Notes under the pieces: generated by a model
Told to the model about the DNA's origin: nothing
What the model saw: the letters and a program-made list of their open reading frames with translations, nothing else
The model's database searches: none
Assembly: GCF_036880965.1 (NCBI RefSeq)
Contig: NZ_JBAJMV010000002.1
Span: forward strand, 191,707-223,706
Reading direction: 5' to 3'
From: Roseateles microcysteis
GTDB lineage: Bacteria; Pseudomonadota; Gammaproteobacteria; Burkholderiales; Burkholderiaceae_C
DNA: 32,000 nucleotides
Shown here: one piece after another, positions 13,301-29,386 of the stretch
How the letters are laid out: the number at the start of each line of letters is the position of its first letter
Numbering within the stretch: position 1 is the stretch's first letter
Made by a program: the position numbers and the translations under genes

Positions 13301-13714
13301 GCCACCGCCCGCGTCGCTCAGGAAAGCGATCTGCTTGCCGTCTGGCGACCAGCGGGCCTGGTGCTCCCAGGCCATCGAATGCGTCAAGGCCTTGGCCTCG
13401 CCGCCGCCAATGGGCAGGGTGTAGAGGTCGCCCAGCAGGTCGAACACCACGGTCTTGCCGTCCGGGCTCACGTCCACGCTCATCCAGCTGCCCGTGCGCA
13501 CATCGATGTTGACGGTCTTGCTCGGGCCGGGCGGGTTGTTGACGCTCCAGGCCGGCTTCTTGGCGGCGCTGGCGGCCGAGGCCGCATCTGCGGCTGGTGC
13601 GGTGGTCTGGGCATTTTGCGCGTTGGCGCCGAGGTTCAAGCCCAGGGTCAGGGCGGCGGCCAGCAGGCTCAGGCGCGGGTGGCGCGGCGCGGACTGGACA
13701 GCGAAAGTGATCAT
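10364..13714 (-). CDS. Secreted TolB-like beta-propeller (PD40 repeats) / amidohydrolase-domain fusion protein
   Basis: 1116 aa from the ATG at 13714 (MITFAVQSAPRHPRLSLLAAALTLGLNLGANAQ signal peptide). Repeated xSPDGKxhxF propeller motifs, and a C-terminal metal-dependent amidohydrolase signature GFIDAHWHG. The track ORF extends to 14536, but that extension overlaps a better plus-strand gene. Confidence 0.85.
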   Translation of the reverse strand: MITFAVQSAPRHPRLSLLAAALTLGLNLGANAQNAQTTAPAADAASAASAAKKPAWSVNNPPGPSKTVNIDVRTGSWMSVDVSPDGKTVVFDLLGDLYTLPIGGGEAKALTHSMAWEHQARWSPDGKQIAFLSDAGGGDNVWLMNADGTGAKAVTKEDFRLLNNPVWHPNGKYLLARKHYTGTRSAGSGEIWMYHVDGGKGVQLNEKPNWQKDLGEPAISPDGKYLYYSNDATPGRVFEYNKDSNAEIFKIFRQDLRDGSTEAFVQGAGGAVRPTPSPDGKYLAFVRRVRNQSTLFLKDLQTGREFAAWGHLERDLQEAWSVYGVYPSFAWTPDAKNIVVWAQGKLWRVDPFKGSASEIAFHVKDTREVREAVRVPQVVAPDEFEVKQLRWVSVSPDGKNVVYSAMGHLYIKDLAGNTQPRRLTKQAEAFEFYPSFSRDSKELVFVTWNDEKLGSVRKLDIASGRETVLTTALGKYLSPRFSPDGKSVVFSKSRGGYLTTPWHGLETGIFIVSADGKGTPKLVTKSGDTPQFGASNEQLFVNRSQSTSEVDSVRKLVRIDLNDRSEIEIARNDNGADYAVSPDGQWLGFTERFHAYVTPLPQTGKAITVGPRMDALPVRQLDVNAADGMHWSGDSQKLHFSMGNELFTTPLSAAFAVGADGKASYKASENGVKIGFMQATDKPSGKIAITGARIATMRGNEVIEDGVIVIDGNRIAAVGRAGQVAVPAGAKTVDAKGKTIVPGFIDAHWHGGMGESALIPQQSWVNYASLAFGLTTIHDPSNSSGEIFTQSEMQRAGLVVGPRIYSTGTILYGAKTSFTAVINNYDDALTHLKRMKANGAISVKSYQQPRREQRQQVIEAARQTGMMVVPEGGSMFQLNMSMVVDGHTGVEHALPIAKVYDDVKQFWSQTQVGYTPTLNVAYGGLDGEHYWYSRTEVWKHPLLTKYVPRSVLEPRSIRRVTAPEEDFNVIQVAKTATELQRTGVQTNIGAHGQREGLGAHWEMWMFGLGGMNSLEALRSATINPARYLGLDKDIGSLEAGKLADLVIIEGDVLKDIRQSDRISHVMINGRLYEAGTMNEVVSRNKPRKPFFFDGADAKGMPVDLELTGHGHGSHGD

Positions 13715-13861
13715 GAGACAGCTCTTTCGTGGTTGGAAAAGTGTGGAAAGAAACGGGCGGCGCGTGAGCATAGCGGCCCCTCGCAAAAGTGACCAAAGAC
13801 AGGGGCTTGCGTGGCTAAACTGGGCAGGTTCGACAATGCATCGATCAGGGAGAAAGCAAGC

Positions 13862-14596
13862 ATGGACCAACGAGTCATCGGCGTGCCAACGCGGCTCTGC
13901 GCATGGCTGAGCCTGATCTGCTTGGGGCTGGGGCAGCCGGCCCCGGTAAAGGCCTTCGACGCGGGCGATCGGCGACCGGTGGCTTCGGCCGAAGCCGACC
14001 GGCGCGTCTGGTTGCGAGCCGTGATGCACTTTGATCTGACCGGGCAGGCCCGAGTGGTGGAGTTTCGCAATATCGACGGGCAGGTGCCTGCCGGTTTCAT
14101 CGAAGTTCTTCAGCAGCGCTTGCTCAACGTGAAGCTGCAGCCGCCTGTGATCGGCGAGCAGGCCGTTGATTGGCGCACCGGCGCCATGGTGGAAGTGGAG
14201 ATTCAGCGCAAGGACGACGGCGCCGGCCAGCTCACCATCAAGCAGCTTCGCTTTGCACCTTTGCTTGTGCGCCAGGTGCTGCAGGATCTGCCGCGCGCGC
14301 TGTCCGCGGCCCGGGCCTACGACCACCAGTTCATGGTGGTCTGCGACATCGATACGCAAGGCCATTGCGATCCCTCGATCGAGGCGCCGGTGCCCATGCC
14401 CGAGCCCGTGCGCAAGTGGGCGCTGGACAGTGCCAAGACCTGGCTGTTCGAGCCTCAGCAACTCGCCGGTCAGGCGGTGCCGGGCCGTGTCAAGCTGCCG
14501 ATGCGGCTGCACACGCCGTTCGGCGAAGAAGGCCAACGCCCGATCGACTTCCGGGTGATCGATCCGATCAATCGGATGAGGTCATCGCGGGAATAG
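13862..14596 (+). CDS. Hypothetical secreted protein
   Basis: ATG at 13862 preceded by GGGAGA. N-terminal signal-like segment PTRLCAWLSLICLGLGQPAPVKA. No motif I recognise with confidence. Confidence 0.55.
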   Translation: MDQRVIGVPTRLCAWLSLICLGLGQPAPVKAFDAGDRRPVASAEADRRVWLRAVMHFDLTGQARVVEFRNIDGQVPAGFIEVLQQRLLNVKLQPPVIGEQAVDWRTGAMVEVEIQRKDDGAGQLTIKQLRFAPLLVRQVLQDLPRALSAARAYDHQFMVVCDIDTQGHCDPSIEAPVPMPEPVRKWALDSAKTWLFEPQQLAGQAVPGRVKLPMRLHTPFGEEGQRPIDFRVIDPINRMRSSRE

Positions 14597-14691
14597 CCTC
14601 CGCCACCGAATGCCGCCGGCTCCAAAGTTCGAGTGATTGGTCCTAGGGGGGGAATCATTGATGACAGGATTTGCTGTACGAATTCGCTTGT

Positions 14692-15054
14692 TTACATAAT
14701 ACACACACGGTCCGTCACATAACTGTTAGGATTTGCGGCTGCCTCGTTGCTTGGGAAAGCAATTAGGGCGGCCACTACGCAAGCCGCGACCTTTGCAGGC
14801 ATGCCGAAGAGTCGGGCCATGCGCTCACGCTCTGCCGGGTCTTTTTCCTGCGAAACGATGGCGGCTAGCGCTGCTTCTCGCGGGTCCAGGCCGGCGACCT
14901 CGGCCAGTTTGGCGGCGATGTTTGGGCTGAGCTGCTTTTCACCTCGTGCGATGCGGCCGAGAAACGAATGGTTCTCGCTGATGGCATCAGCCAGCTTTCG
15001 CCTGCTGCCGAACTTTTCTTCAGCGGCTGCGATAAGGGTTTCTACGGATGACAT
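14692..15054 (-). CDS. HTH DNA-binding regulator (phage repressor/Cro-like candidate) with a hydrophobic C-terminal segment
   Basis: ATG at 15054 preceded by GGAG with a 6-nt spacer. MSSVETLIAAAEEKFGSRRKLADAISENHSFLGRIARGEKQLSPNIAAKLAEV has an HTH-like pattern. The last five codons and the stop lie inside the 12-bp terminal repeat. Confidence 0.6.
   Translation of the reverse strand: MSSVETLIAAAEEKFGSRRKLADAISENHSFLGRIARGEKQLSPNIAAKLAEVAGLDPREAALAAIVSQEKDPAERERMARLFGMPAKVAACVVAALIAFPSNEAAANPNSYVTDRVCIM
14694..14705 (+). repeat. Direct repeat ACATAATACACA, left copy (candidate dif-like att core)
   Basis: Exact 12-nt match to 23268-23279, in the context tgTTTACATAA-TACACA-cacggtccgtc. ACATAA resembles the inner part of a Xer-binding arm, and TACACA differs from the reverse complement (TATACA) of the E. 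coli dif central hexamer TGTATA by one base. Confidence 0.6.
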
Positions 15055-15098
15055 GTGCACCTCCGGTCGTCATAGTTCGCCACATTGTGTGCACCTCC

Positions 15099-15115
15099 GG
15101 TGCACGAGCACCTAA
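15099..15115. promoter_or_regulatory. Candidate operator: palindrome GTGCACC-TCC-GGTGCAC, with a 13-nt half-site copy at 15055-15067
   Basis: 7-bp perfect inverted repeat with a 3-nt spacer. GTGCACCTCCGGT recurs exactly at 15055-15067, overlapping the start of the HTH gene. Confidence 0.4.
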
Positions 15116-15139
15116 GGTCAACATGCGCCGCAATGTACA

Positions 15140-15601
15140 TCAACCTGGTGAGGATGCAAACGCCTTCAGCACGTCTGCCGTGTCGGGCACGTTTTTGAAG
15201 CGCAGCACTCGATATCCGGCCTTGGCGAGCAATGTGTCTCGCGCTGCATCGGCGGCCGCCCGGTTCTTGTGTGAGCTGTCGTCCAGCTCAACGACGGCCA
15301 GCACCTCGAAGGCTTTGGAGCACACGACGAAGTCAGCGACTTTTCGGTCGAACGTTGCTCGGGTAGGGCGGTCCTTTGTGTCGAGCAGAGCCGAGAACGC
15401 CACCTGTGCCAAGACCAATGTGTCGGGCATCGCTTGCGAAAGCCTGAAGAACATTGCCTGCTCTCGCTCCGTTAGCGGTCGCTTTGCGAACAGAGTTCCG
15501 GTGGCCTTGCCGCCTGCTTCATTCGTTCGGAGCTTGGCCGTCACGAGGAACGCAAGGGCTGCCACGGCGAGCAGGACGGCTGCAAAAAATATCAGCTTCA
15601 T
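15140..15601 (-). CDS. Membrane-anchored DUF2726/Vsr-like (PD-(D/E)xK fold) nuclease-domain protein
   Basis: N-terminal TM MKLIFFAAVLLAVAALAFLV. Core ADFVVC...AVVELDDSSH...D..RD..L...GYRVLRF matches the DF / E-x-D-x-x-H / VLRF pattern of DUF2726 and DUF559-type endonuclease folds. Confidence 0.65.
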   Translation of the reverse strand: MKLIFFAAVLLAVAALAFLVTAKLRTNEAGGKATGTLFAKRPLTEREQAMFFRLSQAMPDTLVLAQVAFSALLDTKDRPTRATFDRKVADFVVCSKAFEVLAVVELDDSSHKNRAAADAARDTLLAKAGYRVLRFKNVPDTADVLKAFASSPG

Positions 15602-15613
15602 GGTGGGTGGTCA

Positions 15614-15976
15614 GTGATGAGCGCGCAAAGCATACCGGTTAGCGACGCGCCTACCTATAGGGATTGGCTGACTGCACGCCTGGGTGAGCCATTGGACGGT
15701 GGTATCCGCACGGTCTATGTTCAGTTTCGTAAGCGGGGCGCTGTTCTCTGTGGCGTTGCGATTGAGGCCATCCCGGCTCAGCAGGGCCAAGACTGGTTTC
15801 GGATCAAGTCGAGCTTGGGGCTTTGCTCGGCCCCAGCTGCGAACGTACGCATCTGCGGCGGCGAAGGGTGCAGCTGTGCGCCTGACGCGCCAGCCGCGGG
15901 CGCTTGCGCCGCGCCTGGCGCGTCTCGCGCTGTCCCCCTCGGTAACACGGGGACAACAATCGGGGCAGGGGCATGA
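15614..15976 (+). CDS. Hypothetical protein upstream of rep (coding status uncertain)
   Basis: 120-aa ORF whose stop overlaps the rep ATG (ATGA). No recognisable motif. The same interval contains hairpins (about 15811-15838 and 15930-15955) and could instead be an origin or promoter region. Confidence 0.35.
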   Translation: MMSAQSIPVSDAPTYRDWLTARLGEPLDGGIRTVYVQFRKRGAVLCGVAIEAIPAQQGQDWFRIKSSLGLCSAPAANVRICGGEGCSCAPDAPAAGACAAPGASRAVPLGNTGTTIGAGA

Positions 15977-17139
15977 GGACAGAAGCCCGCCCGGTCCTTG
16001 CCGGAAGGCACCTGAAATGGACGCTGGAACAGCGCCAGGCCAAAACGGGTTGGATGGTGCATATCGACTGGCTCCGGTTCACGGTTCCGCTCGATGCCAT
16101 CGTCAAGCGTGAGCCTGCGCTGGTGGACCTGACGGCGCTTGACCTCCTTGAGCAGTCCGCCCGCGATGTGGTTCGCATGGCGGCAGGGGTTGAGTGCGCA
16201 GAGTACACCTCGGCTCACAAGGTTGCGGAAGCAGGGGCGCGGCTGATAGCCAGTTTGCTGGACTGTGGCATTGAGCCAGGCGAAGCGCTGGAAAAGGGCA
16301 TGGACTTCTACTCTGCCCGTGCGCCTCTCGTGTTCGCTGGCGAAACGGTCGGCTTTGTGCTGGCTGGCGGCAAGGCGACGACGCAATCCGGCACGGTTCA
16401 CGTGAACTTGTTCGGCTCTGCAATGCTGCATGTGCCGGTGGATCGCCTTGACGGCTTGCGGGAGTTCCTCGTTGCCAATGACGGCAACATAACGCGGGTT
16501 GACCTGGCGCTTGATGTGTTCGAGGGTCGGTGCATCGATGAGGTTCGCATGGCCTACCTGGCCGGCGATTTCGACGTTCGGGGCAAGCGGCCTGGTCAGC
16601 GTGAGATTGGAAGCTGGACCCTCGGGCACTCGCGCACGTTTGAGGTTGGCTCACGCCAAACCGGCAAGATGATGCGCGCCTATGAAAAGGGCGATGAAAA
16701 GCTCGGCCCGGAAGCGGACGACCCGTGGATTCGGTATGAGGTCGAGTTTCGGGACAACCATCGAATTATCGATCTTGATGTGTTGACCCGTCCGTCTGAC
16801 TTCTTCGCAGGAGCGTATGAGTTCTGCGCGGACATGCTTGAACAGTTACGCGTCAACGCCAACGCCTGCCGGATCCCGACAGTCCCGGAAGTCGCTGACA
16901 AAACAGAAGAGGCCGCAGTGCTTCGCGTTGCGCGCTGGATCAAGCGCACGGCTGCGCCGGCTCTCTCAGTTGCTCTGAGCCTGGGCGGTGATCTGCTCGG
17001 CCAGATTCTTGACCAAGAGGGTCATCGGATGCCTAAGCGCTTGCGCGGCATCAAGACGGACGCTCTCCGGTCTGCATTCGAAAAAGTCGCCGAAGCAATG
17101 GCCCCCGCTTCGTCGCCGTCGTTGAGTGGGGCTGTGTAG
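15973..17139 (+). CDS. Rolling-circle replication initiation protein, Rep_trans (pfam02486-like; RstA/gpII analogue)
   Basis: N-terminal MVHIDWLRFTVP motif characteristic of Rep_trans initiators of filamentous phages and pT181-type plasmids. First gene of the plus-strand phage operon. An alternative start is at 16054. Confidence 0.8.
   Translation: MRTEARPVLAGRHLKWTLEQRQAKTGWMVHIDWLRFTVPLDAIVKREPALVDLTALDLLEQSARDVVRMAAGVECAEYTSAHKVAEAGARLIASLLDCGIEPGEALEKGMDFYSARAPLVFAGETVGFVLAGGKATTQSGTVHVNLFGSAMLHVPVDRLDGLREFLVANDGNITRVDLALDVFEGRCIDEVRMAYLAGDFDVRGKRPGQREIGSWTLGHSRTFEVGSRQTGKMMRAYEKGDEKLGPEADDPWIRYEVEFRDNHRIIDLDVLTRPSDFFAGAYEFCADMLEQLRVNANACRIPTVPEVADKTEEAAVLRVARWIKRTAAPALSVALSLGGDLLGQILDQEGHRMPKRLRGIKTDALRSAFEKVAEAMAPASSPSLSGAV
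16331..16346. repeat. parS-like palindrome copy S1 (tgTTCGC-TG-GCGAAAC, 12/14)
   Basis: Matches GTTTCGC-NN-GCGAAAC at 12 of 14 specified positions. Lies inside rep. Confidence 0.5.
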
Positions 17140-17154
17140 TTTCGCAAGCGAAAC
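17139..17154. repeat. parS-like palindrome copy S2 (GTTTCGC-AA-GCGAAAC, perfect)
   Basis: Perfect 7-bp arms. Overlaps the last base of the rep TAG stop and sits 14 nt before the gV-position ATG. Confidence 0.75.
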
Positions 17155-17167
17155 AAAAGGAATCGAC

Positions 17168-17470
17168 ATGAAGTTTCAATCGCAGATCACCGTCGTCGGC
17201 ATGAAGGCCAACAAAGGCACGATGGAAAACGGCCAGGCGTATGACAGCACCAAGGTTTATGCGCTGACCGACCTTGACAACAGCAAGGGCATGTCCGTTG
17301 GTCAGGCGACCTCGGAATTCAACATCGGCACCAGCGATGAACTGGCGAAATACAAGCATCTGCCGTTCCCGTTCGTCGCCATGGCCGACTGCGAAATCGT
17401 CACCAGTGGCAAGGCCACGAAGACGGTGATTCACGCCATCAAGCCGTTGGAACCGGCAAAGAAGTCCTAA
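17168..17470 (+). CDS. Candidate ssDNA-binding protein (gV position)
   Basis: 100-aa ORF directly after rep, with RBS AAGGAA 6 nt before the ATG at 17168. Assignment rests on position and size only. Confidence 0.5.
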   Translation: MKFQSQITVVGMKANKGTMENGQAYDSTKVYALTDLDNSKGMSVGQATSEFNIGTSDELAKYKHLPFPFVAMADCEIVTSGKATKTVIHAIKPLEPAKKS

Positions 17471-17479
17471 GGCTTCCCC

Positions 17480-17683
17480 ATGGCGCGCTACCTCATTCAG
17501 AGCGGCTACACGTTTGAGTTCCTGCACTGGGACGAACGAACCGGGGGCGTGAATTGGACGCCTAGCCTTGCCGTCGCAATCCGTCACGGGGTCGCGTCCG
17601 ACCTGGAAGAGGTAGATCAGCTTATGCAGGATCACTGCGACCCTGGGCAGGCGTTCTATGTCGATTTGGACATGGAAACCTAG
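17480..17683 (+). CDS. Hypothetical small phage protein
   Basis: 67-aa ORF starting 10 nt after the previous stop, in the same operon. Confidence 0.45.
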   Translation: MARYLIQSGYTFEFLHWDERTGGVNWTPSLAVAIRHGVASDLEEVDQLMQDHCDPGQAFYVDLDMET

Positions 17684-17846
17684 CGTTAGGCAATGGTTCT
17701 TTGCGCCTTGCTGGCTAGTGCACCAGTAAACGCGTTTCTTGTCGCACTGTGAGGGGTTTGATATGTGGCCGTTTGCTCTGTGGTACTCGGAACCGTTCTG
17801 GTGCTTCTTCCCTGCGTTTTTCTGACGCGGTAGGTAGGTCGTCGCC

Positions 17847-18116
17847 ATGATTTGCATCCCACCGCCGCCGTCTGAAGTCATGTGTGAACCTGGGTTCGTT
17901 TGTGACCCTAGCGGCGGGGGTGCGCCTTATCGGCTTGCGGCTGGTGAGACTTGTGCGGGCTTGACCGTGTTAGAGCCTAACGATGTCCCGCCTAACCCGT
18001 TTGTGATGACGACGGAAGATGGCTTGCTTGTTAGCTCTGCCGTGGCTTCCGTGTGGTGCCTGGCGTGGGCGCTCAAGGCTATTCGCTCTGTTCTCAGTGA
18101 CAACTCGTTGGAGTAA
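17847..18116 (+). CDS. Small membrane protein, minor coat (pVII/pIX-like) candidate
   Basis: C-terminal TM plus basic tail LLVSSAVASVWCLAWALKAIRSVL. An internal ATG at 18006 would give a 36-aa product of pVII/pIX size. The stop lies 2 nt before the next gene. Confidence 0.45.
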   Translation: MICIPPPPSEVMCEPGFVCDPSGGGAPYRLAAGETCAGLTVLEPNDVPPNPFVMTTEDGLLVSSAVASVWCLAWALKAIRSVLSDNSLE

Positions 18117-18118
18117 TC

Positions 18119-18424
18119 GTGGCTGATATCACTTTGATTCAAGGGGCTGGTGTGACGGTTGCGGCGGTTGGTGCGGCTGTGTTTGTTGTTCATGTCACGT
18201 TGGCCATTAACCGTTGGCTGCGCGATGTGTTGGGCTACGGATGGGACTACACGGCTACAGATTTGCACGGGGATGCTTCAGGTGAGGGGCCGCCTCCGGA
18301 CGAATGGGGGGATACGGAGCCTGCTGAAGAAGTGGGTGGGAATCCCAATCCAACGTTTGAAGATGACGACGGCAGAACGTGGGTTGTCGATCACAACGGC
18401 GACTGGGTTGTGAAGTCATCGTGA
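18119..18424 (+). CDS. Leaderless coat-protein paralog with an acidic Pro/Gly/Asp-rich C-terminal tail
   Basis: GTG start. Residues 2-38 (ADITLIQGAGVTVAAVGAAVFVVHVTLAINRWLRDVL) align with the mature major coat protein (TDLTAITGAGTEIAAVGGAVFVVMVGIKLVKWIRRAL) at about 19 of 37 identities. Confidence 0.6.
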   Translation: MADITLIQGAGVTVAAVGAAVFVVHVTLAINRWLRDVLGYGWDYTATDLHGDASGEGPPPDEWGDTEPAEEVGGNPNPTFEDDDGRTWVVDHNGDWVVKSS

Positions 18425-18492
18425 ATTTACGAATCGGGCTCGACGCCGATACGGCTCGATTCGTCCATACCTTTTCGGCGCGGAGATTGAAG

Positions 18493-18678
18493 ATGAACAA
18501 GAACCTCGTTCGCGGCCTGGTTGCCGCTGGTGCCCTGGTTGCCGCTGGCGCTTCGCAAGCTGCAACGGACCTGACCGCCATCACTGGCGCGGGTACTGAA
18601 ATCGCGGCTGTGGGTGGCGCGGTGTTCGTTGTGATGGTCGGCATCAAGCTGGTCAAGTGGATCCGCCGCGCCCTGTAA
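18493..18678 (+). CDS. Major coat protein (pVIII-like) precursor
   Basis: 61 aa with RBS GGAGA. Signal peptide MNKNLVRGLVAAGALVAAGASQA, then a short N-terminal segment, a Gly/Ala/Val TM helix and a basic C-terminus KLVKWIRRAL. This is the classic inovirus coat architecture. Confidence 0.85.
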   Translation: MNKNLVRGLVAAGALVAAGASQAATDLTAITGAGTEIAAVGGAVFVVMVGIKLVKWIRRAL

Positions 18679-18691
18679 GCGCAGCTGGTCC

Positions 18692-18709
18692 GGCCCTTCG
18701 GGGCCTTTT
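18692..18709 (+). terminator. Short hairpin terminator after the coat gene
   Basis: GGCCC-TTCG-GGGCC followed by TTTT, 14 nt after the coat stop codon. Inoviruses commonly attenuate transcription after gVIII. Confidence 0.5.
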
Positions 18710-18711
18710 CC

Positions 18712-18727
18712 AATTCGCATGCGAAAC
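18712..18727. repeat. parS-like palindrome copy S3 (aaTTCGC-AT-GCGAAAC, 12/14)
   Basis: Contains the 12-bp perfect palindrome TTCGCATGCGAA. Lies between the coat terminator and the pIII-like start. Confidence 0.6.
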
Positions 18728-18790
18728 GTGCGCATTGCAAAAGAGGCAAGTCATGGGAATTTGGGTATGTGTCGCGCTGCTGGGGGGTCT

Positions 18791-20248
18791 ATGGATCGTG
18801 CTTCGCGATTAGTCGCTTGTGTCATGGTGTGGGCGCTTCTAGCGTTTGCGCTGGTGGCGCTTTGCTCGCCGGCCTATGCCATAGGGCTTGCTTCGCGTGA
18901 AACCGTGACGACGTATGTAGGTAAGTGCAGTTCGTCGAGCGTTGCCGACGTAACCTCTTCTTCGTCTGCCGGTGCGACGGCCGCGTGTCTTGCTAATTGG
19001 ACTTGGACGGGCTCCGTCTACATTAACGGCTGCACGCGGGCTGTCACGCATGTGGCCTTCATTCATCACGTCGACGCCCTTAGCACGCCTGGAAATTTCA
19101 GGCATTTCATTTACGCCAATCGGACGTATGCCACGCCTGGGACGTGCCAGCCGCAGCCGGCAGACGTGGCGCAGTTTGGGCATGTGGACGTGCTAGCGAC
19201 GACGGCAACGAGTTGCGTTTCGGGCTCGTCACTTATCGCCGGGACCACGGACAAATGTCAGTGCGATCTTGGGCAGAAGCCTGACCCCGCAAACCCCGGT
19301 AAGTGCGTGCCTTACACATGCGCGGCGCCTGGCACGTACTCGGCTGTCACTCAGCCGGACCAACTCGTGCCAAATGCTGGCGATCTGCAATGCGATCAGG
19401 GCTGCGAGAACAAGCCGTCAAGCTGGAAGGCTGGCGCGGACGGCAAGATATGGGCTACGTGGCCGTTTGTGTCTACCGGGAAGACCTGCGGCGGCGCTAA
19501 GTCGGCAACGGCACCGGCTTACGACACGGGGGATTTGAATAATCTCAATCCTGCGCCCGTTGCGTGTCCGGCGAATCAATGTCCGGGCTCAGTTAACGGC
19601 ACAAATGTTTGTGTGGCCTGTTCTGGAACCAAGGTCGAAGGGCCTAGCACGGCTGCGAGTGGCACCACGCCGGCCAATGATGGCTCGGGGTCGATCAAGT
19701 CCGAGAACAAAACAACCGAGTGCACGGGCACCAGTTGCACGACGACGACCACGTACAAAGACGCGAGTGGAAACACAGTCGGCACCAAGACGGAAACCAA
19801 GGATCAGAAGTCCTTCTGTCAGGAGAATCCGACTCTGAGCATCTGCAAAGAATCCGCTTTTGGCGGTAATTGTGCGGGTGGCTTCACCTGTAACGGGGAC
19901 GGCGTGCAATGCGCGCTCGCTCGCGAAGTGCACCGGAACAACTGCGAATGGGCGAAGCAAGACCCGGGCATGAAAGGCGCATGGGATAGCGCCGTCGCAA
20001 ATGCCGGCCAGGCTCAACCCCCAGGGCATCCAGGCGCAGAAGGTGAAGTTACGTCTATGTCGTTCGCGTCTGCCATTGATCAAACAAACCGCCTGGGTGG
20101 CGGCTGTCCCTCGGATGTGTCTATTTCCTACGCTGGCAGAAGCTGGGTAATTCCATGGTCCCAGCACTGCGACAAGCTGCAACTAATCGGTAATTTGATG
20201 GTGTCCGTCTGCATGCTTGCGGCTGCCTTCATCGTCTTTAGGAACTGA
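18791..20248 (+). CDS. Minor coat / host-attachment protein (pIII-like)
   Basis: ATG at 18791 with a G-rich RBS. Signal peptide MDRASRLVACVMVWALLAFALVALCSPAYA, Cys-rich domains separated by Thr/Ser/Gly linkers, and a C-terminal membrane anchor LIGNLMVSVCMLAAAFIVFRN. Sits between the coat and pVI-like genes. Confidence 0.7.
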   Translation: MDRASRLVACVMVWALLAFALVALCSPAYAIGLASRETVTTYVGKCSSSSVADVTSSSSAGATAACLANWTWTGSVYINGCTRAVTHVAFIHHVDALSTPGNFRHFIYANRTYATPGTCQPQPADVAQFGHVDVLATTATSCVSGSSLIAGTTDKCQCDLGQKPDPANPGKCVPYTCAAPGTYSAVTQPDQLVPNAGDLQCDQGCENKPSSWKAGADGKIWATWPFVSTGKTCGGAKSATAPAYDTGDLNNLNPAPVACPANQCPGSVNGTNVCVACSGTKVEGPSTAASGTTPANDGSGSIKSENKTTECTGTSCTTTTTYKDASGNTVGTKTETKDQKSFCQENPTLSICKESAFGGNCAGGFTCNGDGVQCALAREVHRNNCEWAKQDPGMKGAWDSAVANAGQAQPPGHPGAEGEVTSMSFASAIDQTNRLGGGCPSDVSISYAGRSWVIPWSQHCDKLQLIGNLMVSVCMLAAAFIVFRN

Positions 20249-20249
20249 T

Positions 20250-20552
20250 ATGCCAGCACTACTTATCGCGGCCCTTTGGGGTGGTCTGATTCAGGTTCTA
20301 GGTACGCTCGTCGGTAAGGTGCTGGTGTCCCTTGGCATCGGTTATGCCGTTTTCTCGGGGGTCGATACCTCGATCACCTGGGCACGCGATTACGTCATTT
20401 CGCAGATTTCGGCGCAGCACGCCCAGACCGTGGCAGCCGCAAGCGCCTGTAAGGTCGGGGTGTGCATCTCGATTCTTACTAGCGCGCTAGTGGCACGGCT
20501 GACCATCAACGGCCTAACGGGTGGCAGCCTGAAGCGCTTCAAGGTGAAATAG
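20250..20552 (+). CDS. pVI-like minor coat protein (DUF2523-like)
   Basis: 100-aa multi-TM protein MPALLIAALWGGLIQVLGTLVGKVLVSLGIGYAVFSG, starting 1 nt after the pIII-like stop. Size, hydrophobicity and position match the DUF2523 proteins that precede zot in inoviruses. Confidence 0.65.
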   Translation: MPALLIAALWGGLIQVLGTLVGKVLVSLGIGYAVFSGVDTSITWARDYVISQISAQHAQTVAAASACKVGVCISILTSALVARLTINGLTGGSLKRFKVK

Positions 20553-20561
20553 GGCGGGGCG

Positions 20562-20577
20562 GTTTCGCTTGCGAAAC
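20562..20577. repeat. parS-like palindrome copy S4 (GTTTCGC-TT-GCGAAAC, perfect)
   Basis: Perfect arms, in the 24-nt gap between the convergent pVI-like and zot stops. Overlaps the last base of the zot TAG stop. It is the reverse complement of S2, with identity extending over 19 nt (GTAGTTTCGCAAGCGAAAC). Confidence 0.75.
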
Positions 20578-21566
20578 TACTCGACCTTTCGCTCGTTGTG
20601 TGTCGGCACGGCGTGCACTGCCTGCTGCTGCCAGGCGATGAAGAACCCGCCATCAGCAATGCGCCTACACAGGTCCTCCACCATTTCTAGCGCCGTTCCC
20701 TGCTGGCTGTAGCACCTGCACTTGTCTTTGTTGGCAATGCAGGCCGCAGGGTAGGGCGCCTGCGTCGGTTTCGTCACTTCGTCGTAAATTGGCGCGGTGT
20801 GGGGCAGGCCGTCAACGCGGGGCGTGTGGGCCTGCGCATATTGAACCGGCGTTAGTGTCTCGCGCTGGGCTGGCCGCTGGTTATTGCCTCCCATGGATTG
20901 GCGTTGGTCGGCAGTTATGCCTGCCTGTGCATCCATCCGCGCTTGTACGTTTTCTGGCTTCATCCGGTGGTACGCAAACCAGACAAGTGCGGCTAGAACT
21001 ACAGGCAGGGCTAGCAGGATCCAAACGCGCATGGGAATGCGCCGTTTCACCGTGTGAAGCTCTGCCGACTGGTACAGGTCAAAAACGTCTTTCGGATACT
21101 TCCACTCATGGCGGATCGATCCATCGCGGCTCGATGCGACGTTCTCTTTTACGCCGTTCGGGAATTCATGGATCGTCGCTCTGTGCGTGCCGAACTTGCG
21201 CACTACGTGAAAATGCCGGTCCACCAGACGCCGGACAAAGCTGTCCATCAGCATCGGGTTTTGCGTGATGACGACGAAATCCAGCCCCAGGTGGCGATGG
21301 GTTGCTAGGTTGTTGATATGTGGCGGCGGCTCGCCTCGGCCACGAACCGGAAACGGTTTCTGGCACTCGTCGATGACCATGATTGCGCCAGCTGGGAGCT
21401 TTTCCCAATCCTCGGCCGGCCACTCTTGCCATCCGGGGATATTCAGGCCGCGAATGCTGTTGTGAAAGACCGGCCGTCCTTCCTTGATGGCCGAGTCTTT
21501 CCACCGGGCGAGCGCATACAAGGTCTTGCCGTGGCCTGGCAGGCCGGTGATGAGCGTAATCGGCAT
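20577..21566 (-). CDS. zot: Zot / pI-like phage assembly P-loop NTPase
   Basis: MPITLITGLPGHGKTLYAL Walker A, VIDECQ Walker B, central TM VWILLALPVVLAALVWFAY and a Cys-containing C-terminal domain. The ATG at 21566 is 1 nt after the parB-like stop. It is on the opposite strand to all other morphogenesis genes. Confidence 0.85.
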   Translation of the reverse strand: MPITLITGLPGHGKTLYALARWKDSAIKEGRPVFHNSIRGLNIPGWQEWPAEDWEKLPAGAIMVIDECQKPFPVRGRGEPPPHINNLATHRHLGLDFVVITQNPMLMDSFVRRLVDRHFHVVRKFGTHRATIHEFPNGVKENVASSRDGSIRHEWKYPKDVFDLYQSAELHTVKRRIPMRVWILLALPVVLAALVWFAYHRMKPENVQARMDAQAGITADQRQSMGGNNQRPAQRETLTPVQYAQAHTPRVDGLPHTAPIYDEVTKPTQAPYPAACIANKDKCRCYSQQGTALEMVEDLCRRIADGGFFIAWQQQAVHAVPTHNERKVE

Positions 21567-21567
21567 G

Positions 21568-22407
21568 TCAGACCTCGGCGCCGTCGATCTGTTCGCGGAT
21601 CCAGTCGTGTCCGCCGAGTGCTTGCAGCTTGCGGAACTGTTCCGGCGATAGGTCAAGCTGCACCTTATTGAACAATTCGGTCTGTTCTTCGCTTTCGTCG
21701 GTGCCTTCGTCGTCTGCCTGTTCTGCGGCGGCTTCGTCCACCGGATCCGCCTTCAGTTTCGCAAGCGAAGCGCGAACGTCTGCGCGGGCCAGCTGCTCAT
21801 TCATGGCGCGGGTGAGGAGGGCGTTAAGCACTCGCGGCGCGTCTTCGTTCTTGCTCTTGGCAATCTGATTGAGCGTATGCAGAATTTCGACATCGTTCAC
21901 GGCATCGCTGTCGATCAGCGTGCGGACGCGGCTGTCAAAACTCGGGCTTGTCAATGCAAGGTGTTTGCTCACCCATGCCGGCGACTTGTTCACGCGCTTC
22001 GCGACCTCGGCGGGCTTCTTGTAAACGTTGAACAGCTTGCGCACGCCGTCTGCGGTGTCGGCCAGGTTCAAGCCTTCGCGTTGCAGGTTCTCGGCCAGCT
22101 GCACCTCAGTGATGGCGACGGGCTCCTGGTCGACGATCATTGCCGGGATGCGCTCCAGCTTTGCCAGGCGAGCGGCTGCGGTGCGGCGGTGACCATACAA
22201 GACGATGAAGCCTTCATCGGCTTCGGGATCGCGGCGGATCACGATAGGCTGCAAGACGCCATATTGCTGGATCGATTCGGCCAGCTGGCGCAGGCTCTCT
22301 TTGTCGAACCCGTTTCGCGTGCGAATCTGTTCGTGGGTGGTGATGAGGGAAAGCGGAACCAGCTTGACGGCGGCGAGGTCGGCGACTGCATGAGTAGCGG
22401 TGTTCAT
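21568..22407 (-). CDS. ParB/KorB-family protein (N-terminal ParB/Srx domain plus HTH); no cognate ParA
   Basis: ATG at 22407 with AGGAGA 7 nt upstream. Motifs LQPIVIR, YGHRRTAAARLAKLERIPAMIV (the GxRR arginine patch) and HTH PAEVAKRVNKSPAWVSKHLALT. Acidic C-terminal tail. Confidence 0.8.
   Translation of the reverse strand: MNTATHAVADLAAVKLVPLSLITTHEQIRTRNGFDKESLRQLAESIQQYGVLQPIVIRRDPEADEGFIVLYGHRRTAAARLAKLERIPAMIVDQEPVAITEVQLAENLQREGLNLADTADGVRKLFNVYKKPAEVAKRVNKSPAWVSKHLALTSPSFDSRVRTLIDSDAVNDVEILHTLNQIAKSKNEDAPRVLNALLTRAMNEQLARADVRASLAKLKADPVDEAAAEQADDEGTDESEEQTELFNKVQLDLSPEQFRKLQALGGHDWIREQIDGAEV
21756..21771. repeat. parS-like palindrome copy S5 (GTTTCGC-AA-GCGAAgC, 13/14)
   Basis: One mismatch. 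Lies inside the 3' part of the parB-like gene. Confidence 0.6.
22312..22327. repeat. parS-like palindrome copy S6 (GTTTCGC-GT-GCGAAtC, 13/14)
   Basis: One mismatch. Lies inside the 5' part of the parB-like gene. Confidence 0.6.
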
Positions 22408-22545
22408 GTGCGAATCTCCTGAAGTGAGGCGCCCGGGATGGGATACCTTCAGAAGATGCTTCCTCGCTCCCGCCTTGGGGCGGGCGGGGGGTGGGGGCGT
22501 CGCGCTAACGTACAAAAGGGCGCAGCTGCCGCTACACCCGATTAA

Positions 22546-22597
22546 AAAACACCCCCATCGCGCCCCTCGCTCTGCATGGGGACGATGGGGGTGTTTT
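22546..22597 (-). terminator. Long perfect hairpin: terminator of the upstream HTH gene and/or a phage ssDNA structural signal
   Basis: 15-bp perfect inverted repeat AAAACACCCCCATCG / CGATGGGGGTGTTTT around a 22-nt loop that has an internal CCCC/GGGG pairing. Flanked by an A-run and a T-run, so it reads as stem plus U-tract on both strands. Lies in the largest noncoding gap of the prophage (22408-22705). Confidence 0.5.
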
Positions 22598-22705
22598 CAG
22601 GGTGTTGCGGTGGCTGAGCCCTTTTGAGGCTGTCCAGGCCTGGCGCCCGGCGATGACCGTGACACAAAGCCTGCGACTGGCGCGGGCATTGCAGCCAGGC
22701 CGGGT

Positions 22706-23155
22706 TTACCGTGAGGCGGTGGCAGCTGGTGCGATAGGGATCGTTACCCGGACGGGCCGAGATCCTCGAGGAGCTTGGTGGCGAAGCCATAGAGCCCGGC
22801 CCGAAGGGATCGCCGGTCCTGCGTCGTTGGCGCATCCGAAGTCGGCGATTCGGGCCAGCTGCGCGAGCTGGGCGCGTAGACGGCGGTTCTCTGACTTCTC
22901 GGCCATGGCCTGGCTGTACATCATCTTCGCCTGATTTTCGGCGTCGGCATTGGCCGCGGATCGGCCCCAGCGTGTGAGCCAGAACAGCGCGAGCAATACG
23001 GGGCGCGGCGCGAAATTTTCGCGGCGGTAGGTCTGCACGGTGCGGACGGAAATCCCGAGCGCCTTGGCGATCGCGGCGTTTGAGGGCTGGCCGAGGTCGT
23101 CCAGGATCTGGCAGAAGTCGGGCGTACAGGTCGGGCTAGGCAATTTGTGGGGCAT
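22706..23155 (-). CDS. HTH protein, candidate XafT-like (HTH + DUF3653-like) Xer activation factor, inovirus copy
   Basis: ATG at 23155 preceded by AAGG. HTH AAIAKALGISVRTVQTYRR followed by APRPVLLALFWLTRWG. About 40% identical over roughly 100 aa to the divergent ORF at 23314-23781. Confidence 0.55.
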   Translation of the reverse strand: MPHKLPSPTCTPDFCQILDDLGQPSNAAIAKALGISVRTVQTYRRENFAPRPVLLALFWLTRWGRSAANADAENQAKMMYSQAMAEKSENRRLRAQLAQLARIADFGCANDAGPAIPSGRALWLRHQAPRGSRPVRVTIPIAPAATASR

Positions 23156-23267
23156 GGCGAATACCTTCGTCAAGCCAGGCGCGCTGCCTTAGGTGTACGT
23201 CTTGCGTATTGCAAACGGGCCAGGATTCGTGCCAAGAGCCGTGCCATGTAGGCCCATTTGGCAGTTG

Positions 23268-23279
23268 ACATAATACACA
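23268..23279 (+). repeat. Direct repeat ACATAATACACA, right copy (junction between the two prophages)
   Basis: Exact copy of 14694-14705, in the context aGTTGACATAA-TACACA-ttgtcgtgaaa. Lies in the 158-nt divergent gap between the two paralogous HTH genes. Confidence 0.6.
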
Positions 23280-23313
23280 TTGTCGTGAAAAGGTAGGCAG
23301 TGTATGGTCTTCC

Positions 23314-23781
23314 ATGTTAGCGGCTACTACGAAACTCCCAAGTCAGGCAATAAGCAAAAAACCAAGTTGCCCCAGGGAGTCCGAATTGATAGCCAGCTTA
23401 AACCGCCAATCCTTGCCCGATCTGGTCACACTTCTCGCCGATCTTGGGAACCCGCCGCCACGGTGCATCGCCCGTGCGCTAGGCGTTACAGAACGAACCG
23501 CCAGGCGCTGGATTCAGGCCGAGCATGCGCCACGCGCCGCCATGCTGGCCTTGTTCTTCTGCTCGACCTGGGGGCTTTCCAGCGTCAACGCGCAGGCCGT
23601 GAACGAAGCACAGCACGCTGCGGCCATGGCCGCAGCGCTGGCCCGCGAGGTTGCGCAGTTGCGCCGCGAGCTGGCTCGGCTCGCGGCAATTGGTGAGTTC
23701 GGTTCGGCCAACGCTCCCGCGTTCAATGCCGACACGCCCGCGCAGCTCTTGCGGCGCAGGCCGATGCTCAACGGCGCTTGA
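23314..23781 (+). CDS. HTH protein, candidate XafT-like (HTH + DUF3653-like) factor, second-element copy
   Basis: RCIARALGVTERTARRWIQ HTH, then APRAAMLALFFCSTWG and a coiled REVAQLRRELARLAAIGEFG segment. Paralog of 22706-23155. An alternative TTG start at 23386 (GGAG 6 nt upstream) would match the paralog's length. Confidence 0.55.
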   Translation: MLAATTKLPSQAISKKPSCPRESELIASLNRQSLPDLVTLLADLGNPPPRCIARALGVTERTARRWIQAEHAPRAAMLALFFCSTWGLSSVNAQAVNEAQHAAAMAAALAREVAQLRRELARLAAIGEFGSANAPAFNADTPAQLLRRRPMLNGA

Positions 23782-23837
23782 AGCGGCCGTTCTTTGCTCG
23801 TGCTGGGGTCTTGCTCTTGCGCTTCTTTGCCATGGCT

Positions 23838-23996
23838 TCAGCCTTTCAGGTTGTCGATTCGTGCGTGTGCTGCGCGGGCGCTCTCCAGCGCATGCGATGC
23901 CCGTTCATTGAGCCGCGCCAGGTCGGCCCGAATGCCGGCATAGACGCTGGCAGCGAGCGCCGCCTGTGGCAGCAGTTGCAGCAGCCAGTCAGGCAT
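23838..23996 (-). CDS. Small protein (52 aa), hydrophobic N-terminus plus coiled segment; lysis-module candidate
   Basis: MPDWLLQLLPQAALAASVYAGIRADLARLNERASHALESARAAHARIDNLKG. Its ATG overlaps the upstream stop (TGATG). Below the ORF-track length cutoff. Confidence 0.4.
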   Translation of the reverse strand: MPDWLLQLLPQAALAASVYAGIRADLARLNERASHALESARAAHARIDNLKG

Positions 23997-24163
23997 CAGC
24001 TCTGCGCCTTCTCGGGCGCCAGGACGGCCACCAGGCCGGCCACGCCGGCAATGACCTGGCCGGCCAGGTCAACGGTGCCAGGCGGCAAACCGAAGATCAG
24101 GCCGAGGGCCGAGATACCGGCCCAGGTGCTGGGCTCGCGCAGGCGCTTCAAAAATTGCTTCAT
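23996..24163 (-). CDS. Small membrane protein (55 aa)
   Basis: MKQFLKRLREPSTWAGISALGLIFGLPPGTVDLAGQVIAGVAGLVAVLAPEKAQS. Two hydrophobic segments. Starts 3 nt after the upstream stop. Confidence 0.45.
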   Translation of the reverse strand: MKQFLKRLREPSTWAGISALGLIFGLPPGTVDLAGQVIAGVAGLVAVLAPEKAQS

Positions 24164-24166
24164 GGT

Positions 24167-24454
24167 TCAGCTCCAGAGGTAGGAAAGAAAGTCCTTTGCC
24201 GGACAGGCAAAGGATGCGTCCCAGGTGCGGCCCTCGGCCTTCGCCTTCTCGCACTCGGTGAGATTGGTTTCAGGGATGCCAACGGCCTTTCCGATGGCGA
24301 TGGCGCCACCTGATACGGTGCCGTCCACCAGGTCAACGGCCGCGCCGCCAATGGCCGCGCCGGCTCCCTTGAAGCCGCCCTTGTAGGCCACCCAGGCGAG
24401 CGCCAGGACGACTGCGCCGCCGGCTGCCAGGTAGACGGGTGGAATGCGCGCCAT
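24167..24454 (-). CDS. Small membrane protein (95 aa)
   Basis: N-terminal TM PPVYLAAGGAVVLALAWVAY and a Gly/Ala-rich segment. Starts 2 nt after the upstream stop. Confidence 0.55.
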   Translation of the reverse strand: MARIPPVYLAAGGAVVLALAWVAYKGGFKGAGAAIGGAAVDLVDGTVSGGAIAIGKAVGIPETNLTECEKAKAEGRTWDASFACPAKDFLSYLWS

Positions 24455-24456
24455 GG

Positions 24457-24639
24457 TCAGAAATAGACCTTCGTCGGGTCCCAGTTGGGGTTGTCGGACG
24501 GGTTGACCCGGCCGCCGCCAGCGCGCACGCCGGCCGCCGTTTTGGCGGTGCCGCCCGATGCCTTGACGATCATCCAGACAGCCACGGCGGCCAGGCCCAG
24601 GACGATGAGTTCTGTTTTCTTCATGGTCACGCCTTTCAT
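24457..24639 (-). CDS. Small membrane protein (60 aa; alternative start at 24624), holin-like candidate
   Basis: MKGVTMKKTELIVLGLAAVAVWMIVKASGG. The ATG at 24639 overlaps the SLT stop (ATGA), and a second ATG at 24624 has an AAAGG RBS. The track ORF extension to 24780 overlaps the SLT gene. Confidence 0.5.
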   Translation of the reverse strand: MKGVTMKKTELIVLGLAAVAVWMIVKASGGTAKTAAGVRAGGGRVNPSDNPNWDPTKVYF

Positions 24640-25235
24640 GCGTAGTCGGTGCCGGCCGTGCTGTTCACGTCCGCGAGGATTTGCCCGAAGTAGTTGCGGG
24701 TTTCGCGTGGCGCCGCCTCCAGGCCCTTGCGCGACACATTGCCCATTCCCCAGTTGTAGGCGGCCAGCGCTTCCGACCAATTGCCGAAGCGGTTGAACAG
24801 GCTTCGCAGGTAGCGCGCAGCGGCCGGGATTGCCTGGGCCGGGTTCAGCGGGTCGATGCCCATATCCCGCGCCGTGGCGGGCATGAACTGGGCGATTCCC
24901 AGCGCGCCGGCAGGGCTGCGCGTGGCGCCGCTGATGATGTCTTCTCTGTACCGGCTCTCTTGGTACAGCAGGCGCTCGAGCATCAGCGCCGGCAGGCCGT
25001 TGTCCTGCTCGGCCTGCGCGATCAAGCCTGCGTAGCGTTCAGGCGCCCGCCAGAGCTGCAAAAGGTTCACCGTCTTGCTCACAATCGTGTCTCCCACATC
25101 TGCGGCCGACTCAAGCCAGCCGCCACCATCTGCCGGCGCCGCATCCGGCGCCGCCTCTTCTTGTCGCTGCCGGTACATGACCCACGCGCCCACGGCCAGC
25201 AGGCCGGCAGCACCGATCAGTACAGAGCCGCGCAC
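24636..25235 (-). CDS. Membrane-anchored lytic transglycosylase (SLT domain)
   Basis: GTG start and an N-terminal TM. Catalytic and structural motifs LLYQESRY, GALGIAQFMPATA and AAYNWGMGNV. Confidence 0.85.
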   Translation of the reverse strand: MRGSVLIGAAGLLAVGAWVMYRQRQEEAAPDAAPADGGGWLESAADVGDTIVSKTVNLLQLWRAPERYAGLIAQAEQDNGLPALMLERLLYQESRYREDIISGATRSPAGALGIAQFMPATARDMGIDPLNPAQAIPAAARYLRSLFNRFGNWSEALAAYNWGMGNVSRKGLEAAPRETRNYFGQILADVNSTAGTDYA

Positions 25236-25238
25236 CCG

Positions 25239-25574
25239 TCAGCCCCCTCGCCGCGTGCGCGCAGCCTTGGCGGCCGTTTCCTTGCCCTCCAGATAGGCCA
25301 CGTCGGCGCCGACCTTCTTTGCGATGGCGATAAACACCTCGCGAGCCGTGCGGCTCATGCCGGTGTCTCGGTCGATCTGTTCTAGCTCGACGCTCGCCGC
25401 CTCGGCATCGCTGGGAGGAACCGCAGCGACTGCAACGAAGGCCGCACCGTCCCAGCGCTTGCCGATAGGTGCCGCGCCTGGTGCGAGTTCGATCATGGTC
25501 GGGCTGTCCACCTTGCCGCCCAATTCAGACACGCCAACGCAGATGCCGGCGCCGTTGATCTGTGCGTATCGCAT
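25239..25574 (-). CDS. Hypothetical protein (111 aa)
   Basis: ORF coupled to both neighbours (1-nt and 3-nt junctions). No recognisable motif. Confidence 0.5.
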   Translation of the reverse strand: MRYAQINGAGICVGVSELGGKVDSPTMIELAPGAAPIGKRWDGAAFVAVAAVPPSDAEAASVELEQIDRDTGMSRTAREVFIAIAKKVGADVAYLEGKETAAKAARTRRGG

Positions 25575-25915
25575 CAGTTGCTCTCCTGGATCTGCCAGCG
25601 CACAACCATTCGCTTGTACGTGTTCAAGGTGCCCGAGAAAATCCGCATCGTCGTGGCGTTCACAAAGTAGGCCTTCGGCAGGCTGGCGCTTGTGTTGAAT
25701 CGGCCCACGCGGCCCGCTGTGTTTGCTGTCGTTGTGGCTGACGCATCGTCACCCACCACACCATTCAAAAGAATCACCGCCTTGGCCGTATTGACGGCCG
25801 CGACTGTCACGTCGATGTAATGGCCCTCAGGTTCAGTTCCTGCGGTCAACCCCGCCTGGTCAACGTCCACCAGGCCAGATTGCACCTTGAAGCCGCTGCT
25901 TGCACCAATGCCCAT
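25574..25915 (-). CDS. Beta-rich hypothetical structural protein (113 aa), vertex/spike candidate
   Basis: Alternating hydrophobic pattern typical of beta-sandwich proteins. Lies within the structural operon. Confidence 0.5.
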   Translation of the reverse strand: MGIGASSGFKVQSGLVDVDQAGLTAGTEPEGHYIDVTVAAVNTAKAVILLNGVVGDDASATTTANTAGRVGRFNTSASLPKAYFVNATTMRIFSGTLNTYKRMVVRWQIQESN

Positions 25916-25918
25916 GCG

Positions 25919-26500: not shown

Positions 26501-26509
26501 CGCGTGCCT

Positions 26510-27950: not shown

Positions 27951-27959
27951 GGGGGTCCT

Positions 27960-28229: not shown

Positions 28230-28241
28230 GTGGTCCGTCCC

Positions 28242-29072: not shown

Positions 29073-29086
29073 GCTTCAGCCCTCAC

Positions 29087-29266: not shown

Positions 29267-29320
29267 ACAGGGTTGGCCGCATCGGTTGCCCCGGTGCTGG
29301 CGTCTTGCAAGGCCTCATTC

Positions 29321-29353: not shown

Positions 29354-29386
29354 ATCTCTTCCCGTTACCGTATGGCTCGGGCGCCG

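Follow-up and report, generated by a model that had tools for sequence, protein, structure and literature searches.

The DNA analysed here is a stretch of 32,000 nucleotides from Roseateles microcysteis (the window; NCBI RefSeq assembly GCF_036880965.1, contig NZ_JBAJMV010000002.1, positions 191,707 to 223,706 of the forward strand), in which a filamentous (inovirus) prophage at 14.7-23.2 kb is followed by a PM2-like (corticovirus-type) prophage. Two 28-bp sites that resemble dif bound the inovirus. Comparisons with related loci indicate that the two sites are probably XerC/XerD dif-type junctions of an inovirus without an integrase, inserted in the dimer-resolution site of R. microcysteis, with the PM2-like prophage at the same locus. 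From the site between the two prophages diverge two paralogous genes, HTH1 and HTH2, which encode small helix-turn-helix (HTH) proteins of a family termed HTH-155. Integrative mobile elements exploiting Xer recombination (IMEXs) shape genomes at dif, a site needed by every circular chromosome, with CTXΦ and TLCΦ of the cholera bacterium as the classic example. To our knowledge, the mechanism is known almost entirely from Vibrio. The loci described here point to the same strategy in freshwater and soil Burkholderiales, with inovirus and PM2-like prophages stacked at dif through mirror-image one-armed attPs and with an accessory gene that belongs to a large family currently annotated as 'hypothetical'.

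A 12-bp repeat at the borders of the inovirus prophage

An earlier note on this DNA, made from the letters alone, had reported an exact 12-bp repeat with a spacing of 8,574 bp at the compositional and gene-content boundaries of the filamentous prophage. Both observations were confirmed. The repeat, ACATAATACACA, has two exact copies on the plus strand (14694-14705 and 23268-23279), and the window contains no further copy when one mismatch is allowed. The match between the copies extends to 15 of 16 bases (gTTtACATAATACACA vs. gTTgACATAATACACA). The GC content falls from ~0.655 to ~0.59 at 14.5 kb, where the left copy lies, and rises again at ~23.5 kb, just past the right copy. The host genes stop at 14536, the inovirus genes occupy 14692-23173 and the genes of the PM2-like corticovirus begin at 23314.

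Exact 12-mer repeats are common in the window (252 pairs, vs. ~78 in mononucleotide shuffles), and a chance match at unrelated positions could be considered for that reason. However, ACATAATACACA is the only repeated 12-mer of the window with at least eight A/T bases and is expected 1.2e-4 times per window from the base composition; two or more copies occurred in none of 100 dinucleotide shuffles. The extended match lies exactly at both prophage borders, and the dif architecture is conserved beside homologous genes elsewhere, comparisons that effectively refute a chance match and leave it a negligible probability. The weight of the repeat lies in the comparison across loci rather than in the repeat statistics.

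Architecture of the two dif-type sites

The repeat copies form part of two 28-bp sites (sites 1 and 2, Table 1), which are in direct orientation and have in common the central hexamer and the inner half of one arm. The shared arm, on the ACATAA side, is provisionally assigned to the XerD type by alignment with published dif sites, an assignment that the earlier note had considered impossible from the window. The published dif of Rhodoferax (Comamonadaceae), ACTTGATACGA TGTATA TTATGTTAAGT, matches the arms of these sites (PMC2731167) and shows that an XerC arm ending in ...ACGA or ...ACAA is normal in this clade. Thus, the left arm of site 2 on the minus strand is a plausible XerC arm, whereas that of site 1 is not.

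On the plus strand, site 2 has as its right arm TTGTCGTGAAA, the reverse complement of TTTCACGACAA, the XerC-type arm found beside 34 homologous genes (consensus nnnnGCGACAA), which also resembles the XerC arm of the Rhodoferax dif. The XerD arm of site 2 recurs unchanged as the phage-side arm of the related loci L006, L010, L015, L020 and L028. Site 2, with an XerC-type arm on its right, is thus a dif-like site with both arms and the foremost candidate for the live dif. It is also the best dif match in the window, and the only complete dif-like site there. Site 1 has the same layout as the sites at 18896 of L006 (GCAGCTCGGTC TGTATA TTATGTTAACT) and at 8594 of L061. The right-hand 11 nt had been described as degenerate in both copies; this description holds for site 1, whereas in site 2 these letters form the clade-typical XerC arm. 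No inverted partner site of the kind used by CTXΦ, whose attP is folded single-stranded DNA (ssDNA), was found near either junction.

Related loci and mirror-image layouts

About 60-65 relative loci, 421 kb in total, were fetched via the HTH-155 family. The motif TGT[AGT][TC][AG]TTATG[TC] occurs 49 times in this sequence, and 47 of the occurrences are located at most 250 bp upstream of an HTH gene. Conversely, of the 49 loci whose upstream sequence is long enough, 42 contain a dif-like site at most 250 bp upstream of the HTH gene. Two layouts were observed. The gene follows the XerD arm, with the conserved sequence TTATGTCAAnT, in class A (13 loci and HTH1), and it follows the XerC-type arm, nnnnGCGACAA or ...ACGA, in class B (34 loci and HTH2). 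The central hexamers vary by host (TGTATA, TGTGCA, TGTGCG, TGTGTA) and the two ends of an element always share the same hexamer. As in the window, a complete site is flanked by a divergent pair of HTH genes in L010 and L020. The linkage makes an HTH-155 gene with a dif-like 28-mer at most 250 bp upstream a marker for dif/IMEX borders in this clade. The earlier note had passed over both the divergent paralogues at site 2 and the reading frame of the repressor-like gene through site 1 (below).

The class A junctions are best seen in L006, where an inovirus related to that of the window (51% identity in Rep, 50% in the HTH protein and 42% in ParB) is flanked by ATTTCGCACAA-TGTATA-TTATGTCAACT and GCAGCTCGGTC-TGTATA-TTATGTTAACT. 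The two junctions give an empty site ATTTCGCACAA-TGTATA-TTATGTTAACT, a near-canonical dif with one mismatch per arm from the consensus. Together with the 28-bp architecture, this empty site supports the proposal of the earlier note that each repeat copy is half of an Xer site of the dif type. The attP of the L006 phage has an XerD arm and lacks an XerC arm, and the same pattern is found in L061. A viral contig of 6.7 kb (L011) carries CGGGGCCCCTC-TGTATA-TTATGTCAACC between a repressor homologue and the HTH gene, apparently an unintegrated attP.

In class B, the far junction consists of an XerC arm, the core and a degenerate XerD side in all eight elements of which both ends are seen (L010, L014, L030, L039, L047, L054, L059 and L066). 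L010 is an inovirus, and L039 is a complete corticovirus of 10.2 kb with a P2 capsid protein and a GPA Rep, in which no integrase was found. The other six are HTH-only elements of 1.08-1.66 kb (Table 1) with the HTH-155 gene as their sole conserved gene, bounded by a complete dif-like site at one end and by an XerC arm, the core and degenerate sequence at the other; L030 contains two tandem copies. These mini-elements could be satellite-like mini-IMEXs or decayed prophages. At ~1.1 kb, they are compact candidates for showing how Xer acts on sites without an XerC arm.

The suggestion that the array continues to the right of the inovirus is supported, and the PM2-like prophage belongs to the same array. 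A third copy of the complete 12-mer, with a TTATGTTAAAT-like arm after it, had been predicted beyond this second element, a prediction that appears to need correction. Because the same pattern is seen in eight of the eight analogous elements, the third junction beyond 32000 would most likely join TACACA to the XerC arm of the host; its XerD side would be degenerate and the complete 12-mer probably absent.

Neither element encodes an integrase within the window, in agreement with the earlier reading: a Pfam search of the annotated open reading frames (ORFs) and of 10 long antisense ORFs in 14.7-32 kb detected no integrase or recombinase domain. The inovirus is complete between its repeats without such a domain, the complete analogue L039 lacks one as well, the 28-bp architecture with host-specific hexamers recurs in dozens of loci, and the attB reconstructed from L006 is a near-canonical dif. 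These results make it very improbable that a dedicated recombinase, whether a tyrosine or serine integrase with its gene just beyond the window or the rolling-circle Rep, created the repeats by duplicating a target or att site and that their likeness to dif is coincidental. Room for such an enzyme is left by the second element, which is cut by the window end at 32000, and by the integrases that some Vibrio tailless prophages at dif carry (PMC11630473).

The array could also occupy a secondary dif-like site, a decoy or a relic of earlier elements, rather than the dimer-resolution site. The hexamer TGTGTA differs from the common TGTATA, and the position of the terminus rests on a weak GC skew: the host flank has a skew of +0.044 and a 4:1 ratio of GGGNAGGG, which resembles the FtsK-orienting polar sequences (KOPS), values that are weakly consistent with a terminus. 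However, the hexamers vary between hosts and are identical at both ends of each element, and in every case studied IMEX arrays both regenerate the live dif and contain it (PMC12715192, PMC6744903). A secondary site is therefore improbable, and site 2 is probably the working chromosomal dif.

Several observations weigh against integration at dif as read here. Neither the third junction nor the XerC arm of the host is inside the window, so that dif integration in this genome is judged from the relatives. The GC skew around the sites in the long relatives is too small to place the terminus. The orientation of zot is odd, and the inovirus may be rearranged.

A search for an empty site with the flanking amidohydrolase gene retrieved only Pelomonas sp. 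V22 (62% identity), which is non-syntenic and has no dif-like site upstream of the gene. No phage record was matched by 14-24 kb of the window in a megablast search.

Comparison with known Xer-dependent elements

The gene order of PM2 is p16, attP (XerD arm and core) and p15, and Vibrio arrays of inoviruses together with double jelly-roll (DJR) phages have a repressor / XafT-P15 / attP module (PMC12715192). One-armed 17-bp attPs have been described in these arrays, where inovirus and DJR phages are commonly arranged in tandem (PMC12715192). The R. microcysteis array resembles them. An inovirus and a PM2-like prophage share one locus and both lack an integrase, the corticovirus being known up to 32000. 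The inovirus prophage ends on one side with a repressor-like gene and on the other with the gene of a small HTH regulator (HTH1). In the circle, these two genes lie on the two sides of attP in the order repressor, attP, regulator, as in the PM2/CTX-I module. The one-armed 17-bp attPs occur in both orientations, and that of the inovirus has the PM2 order. The differences are the betaproteobacterial host (Roseateles, Burkholderiales) and its other XerC arm (...CGACAA or ...ACGA), a regulator that is not a recognisable DUF3653 protein, a repressor without BLASTP similarity to P16 and an inverted zot coupled to a parB-like gene.

In the attP of TLCΦ, the XerC arm is good and the XerD arm poor, and the xafT gene (HTH and DUF3653) that flanks the XerC arm encodes a factor that does not depend on FtsK to activate XerD (Midonet et al. 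2019, PMC6744903; see also Miele et al. 2022, PMC9226527). The corticovirus side of the array has a similar layout. A good XerC arm and the core are present, HTH2 lies directly beside the XerC arm in the position of the factor gene, the far junction of the eight analogues has a degenerate XerD side, and a complete dif is regenerated beside the factor-position gene. The start of HTH2 is 24 bp from the XerC-type arm, whereas the typical spacing in class B is ~60 bp. Unlike XafT, HTH-155 has no detectable DUF3653, and its carriers are a corticovirus, inoviruses and 1-kb mini-elements rather than a Cri-encoding satellite. The likeness to TLCΦ is one of layout. No additional site was found within 23291-32000. 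The possibility that HTH2 marks a separate mini-element in front of the corticovirus was considered and rejected, because no further core with an XerC-like arm is present in this region.

Filamentous phages of the VGJΦ/Cf/Lf and CTXΦ types use the host XerCD at dif (PMC4246890). The inovirus of the window resembles them in being filamentous and in having an RstA-like or related Rep. However, their attPs retain a good XerC arm and depend on catalysis by XerC, whereas the inovirus attP lacks an XerC arm, and no counterpart of the two inverted sites of the folded CTXΦ attP was found here. The array is a known IMEX theme (Vibrio, 2025) in a new host clade, possibly with a new accessory factor, and not a new kind of system.

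The HTH-155 family

A word-indexed search retrieved 81 relatives of HTH-155, and an exhaustive search (E<=1e-3) retrieved 1,013 representative proteins, each standing for a cluster at 50% identity, mostly from Burkholderiales-like hosts. The members have no annotation beyond generic HTH domains, and the Joint Genome Institute (JGI) labels some of them 'AlpA-like regulator'. HTH1 itself is 100% identical to WP_334276756.1, a hypothetical R. microcysteis protein whose start is called at 23155 by NCBI. In the family, a conserved motif, APRPVLLALFWLTRWG, precedes a coiled coil and GDFGCAND. The family also has long members, of 300-390 aa, in which no extra Pfam domain was found. The AlphaFold2 (AF2) model of an HTH-155 protein (predicted local distance difference test score, pLDDT, 78) shows a four-helix HTH and one long helix. 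A rough neighbour-joining (NJ) tree places the mini-element proteins in a clade of their own and groups the corticovirus class B proteins, including HTH2, with class A. PHROGs gave no match for HTH1 or HTH2, a tblastn search of HTH1 against phages gave none, and in a sequence search of PDB the family profile matched generic HTH proteins only (E >= 0.036).

The HTH-155 genes occupy the position of the XafT and P15 genes, and the proteins may be remote relatives of XafT/P15. By analogy of position, we infer that HTH-155 would act as an element-encoded Xer accessory or activation factor in the XafT/P15 role. In a stronger form, which we put forward tentatively, HTH-155 would be a previously unrecognised family of Xer factors, either independent of DUF3653 or too divergent for its detection, that permits XerCD to act at attPs lacking either arm, even the XerC arm, and that is the sole gene needed for the minimal IMEXs of 1.1-1.7 kb.

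Several comparisons speak against a factor of this kind. DUF3653 (PF12375) was absent from the Pfam matches of 30 HTH-155 members at E<=1. The hhalign comparison of HTH-155 with the PM2 P15 family was marginal (probability 65.5%, E 5.8e-5, 81 columns); the matched region comprises the HTH, a 'PR' motif and the C-terminal helix, and the P15 segment W-G-F-x-I-C-R-x-G-Y-L-W-T-P-R-G has no clear counterpart in HTH-155. A search of BFVD with the predicted fold retrieved no protein annotated as P15 or XafT, and none at all at E <= 0.001; the best match was an uncharacterised protein of Corticoviridae (E 2.8e-3). We also know of no mechanism for Xer recombination with an attP without an XerC arm.

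HTH-155 could thus be only a regulator of transcription or lysogeny beside attP, comparable to P15/P16 of PM2, with real Xer/dif att sites and no need for a phage factor, as in VGJ and CTX. The generic HTH domains, the missing DUF3653, the simple predicted fold and the 'AlpA-like regulator' label all agree with such a protein. However, the linkage between gene and site (47 of 49 motif matches) is extreme for a regulator, and at least six independent dif-flanked elements of 1.1-1.7 kb, one of them tandemly duplicated, have HTH-155 as the only conserved gene. One-armed attPs are moreover poor Xer substrates, and TLCΦ, the sole tested case, needs a factor encoded where HTH2 sits. A role confined to regulation therefore seems rather doubtful. 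If it were true, the array would be a well-documented but ordinary new example of an IMEX array, whereas with HTH-155 as the factor the working dif of a chromosome can consist wholly of the DNA of two phages.

Proposed integration model

In the proposed model, both elements would have entered through the host XerCD. The inovirus attP would consist of a good XerD arm and the hexamer, with the 3' end of the repressor-like gene on the XerC side, a left-armed form with the PM2 layout. The corticovirus attP would consist of a clade-typical XerC arm and the hexamer, with a XerD side that is degenerate by analogy with the relatives, as in the TLCΦ layout. Around the live dif, class A elements would stack on the XerD side and those of class B on the XerC side, regardless of the order of arrival. 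Site 2 would then combine one arm from each phage as the sole complete site and would probably now be the dif of the chromosome. Since site 1 is crippled, FtsK-driven excision of the inovirus should be hindered.

The repressor-like ORF runs across the degenerate arm and the central region of site 1 and is closed by a TAA within the XerD arm of the host. In the circular junction as reconstructed, it is 154 aa long and ends with a TGA that overlaps the HTH1 TTG. A similar read-through was observed in L006, L025, L026, L027, L061 and L002, and the homologue in L011 instead lies a short way upstream of the site. The repressor-like gene, attP and HTH1 would form a single read-through unit in the circular inovirus. 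Integration splits this unit, so that the putative factor could be silenced in the lysogen. A promoter scan found no sigma-70-like promoter between site 2 and HTH1, which weakly supports expression by read-through. The repressor-like protein is predicted to have 122 aa in the prophage and 154 aa in the episome, a difference of 32 residues, with its C-terminus coded across the recombination site.

Gene content of the two prophages

The coordinates of the sites, genes and mini-elements are listed in Table 1.

Table 1. Coordinates of the sites and genes in the window and of the mini-elements in related loci
Feature	Position	Strand	Evidence or remark
Host genes	1-14.6 kb		last gene PD40/amidohydrolase, 1,390 aa, 10364-14536, minus strand
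Site 1, prophage-host junction	14689-14716	-	GACGGACCGTG / TGTGTA / TTATGTAAACA: degenerate XerC-side arm of the element / central hexamer / host XerD-type arm
XRE-type HTH repressor-like gene, terminal	14692-15060	-	Pfam HTH_3; phrog_638 transcriptional regulator
DUF2726/DUF559 (endonuclease-like) accessory gene	15140-15601	-	Pfam
Rolling-circle initiator, RstA-like (Rep_trans)	15973-17139	+	Pfam PF02486, E 2.6e-20
Structural block	17126-20552	+	PHROG matches; homologues adjoin zot in L002
ORF, phrog_4994	17126-17470	+	PHROG; followed by small ORFs
Major coat protein	18379-18678	+	PHROG
pIII-like gene	18719-20248	+	PHROG
pVI-like gene	20217-20552	+	PHROG
Zot/pI assembly ATPase	20577-21566	-	Pfam PF05707, E 4.6e-23; strand opposite to pIII/pVI (unusual)
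ParB_N/KorB-domain gene, between HTH1 and zot	21568-22515	-	Pfam; homologue in the same place in L006
HTH1 (HTH-155 family), other terminal gene	22706-23173	-	155 aa; adjoins the XerD arm of the element
Site 2, inter-prophage junction	23263-23290	-	TTTCACGACAA / TGTGTA / TTATGTCAACT: putative corticovirus XerC-type arm / central hexamer / inovirus XerD arm
PM2-like (corticovirus-type) prophage	23291-32000, continuing beyond the window	-	Pfam, PHROG
HTH2, terminal gene	23314-23781	+	HTH1 paralogue, 43% identity; adjoins the XerC-type arm
SLT lysin	24636-25235		Pfam SLT
P2 double jelly-roll capsid protein	28242-29072		Pfam P2_N (E 1.3e-25), P2_C (E 6.6e-39)
Packaging ATPase	29387-30220		phrog_2666, PHROG terminase-like ATPase
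GPA-type Rep (Phage_GPA)	ORF start 30942, open to 32000		Pfam
Mini-element L014	9913-11362		
Mini-element L047	9935-11624		
Mini-element L054	3873-4981		
Mini-element L059	8542-9738		
Mini-element L066	9931-11059		
Mini-elements L030	1551/2943/4335		two tandem copies

The inovirus between the repeats (8,574 bp) is, as judged from its sequence, a complete element of the RstA type. Pfam and PHROGs identified a rolling-circle Rep, a Zot/pI ATPase, a major coat protein and pIII- and pVI-like proteins. The Rep shares ~30% identity with Rep/RstA proteins from phiSHP2, SMA6 and CTXphi. The corticovirus-like prophage contains the P2 capsid protein, the packaging ATPase and a Rep of the GPA type for rolling-circle replication (RCR).

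The DUF2726/DUF559 gene, which has a Vsr-like endonuclease fold, lies between the repressor-like gene and the replication module and is possibly accessory or defence cargo.

The zot gene is co-oriented with pIII and pVI in L002, L006 and L011, and the HTH1-parB-zot operon is an unusual layout for an inovirus. Of a perfect inverted repeat of 15 nt (20564-20578 / 21755-21769), one arm belongs to a palindrome that separates pVI from zot, which are convergent, and the second arm lies within parB. A recent inversion of zot between the two arms was considered and is unlikely, because one arm is located inside parB and because parB and zot are translationally coupled (TGAcATG at 21564-21570). The intergenic region between parB and HTH1 (22513-22626) contains two strong hairpins, one of 20 nt with 90% and one of 27 nt with 85% complementarity. 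These structures could represent a terminator, an origin or a packaging signal.

Another array of an inovirus and a PM2-like prophage is present in Roseateles aquatilis (L002, NIOF01000019.1, 567-16918), with Zot, pVI and pIII proteins 48-55% identical to those of the window. Its corticovirus has the class A layout, and a 117-aa ORF reads across the site and ends with a TGA stop in the XerD arm.

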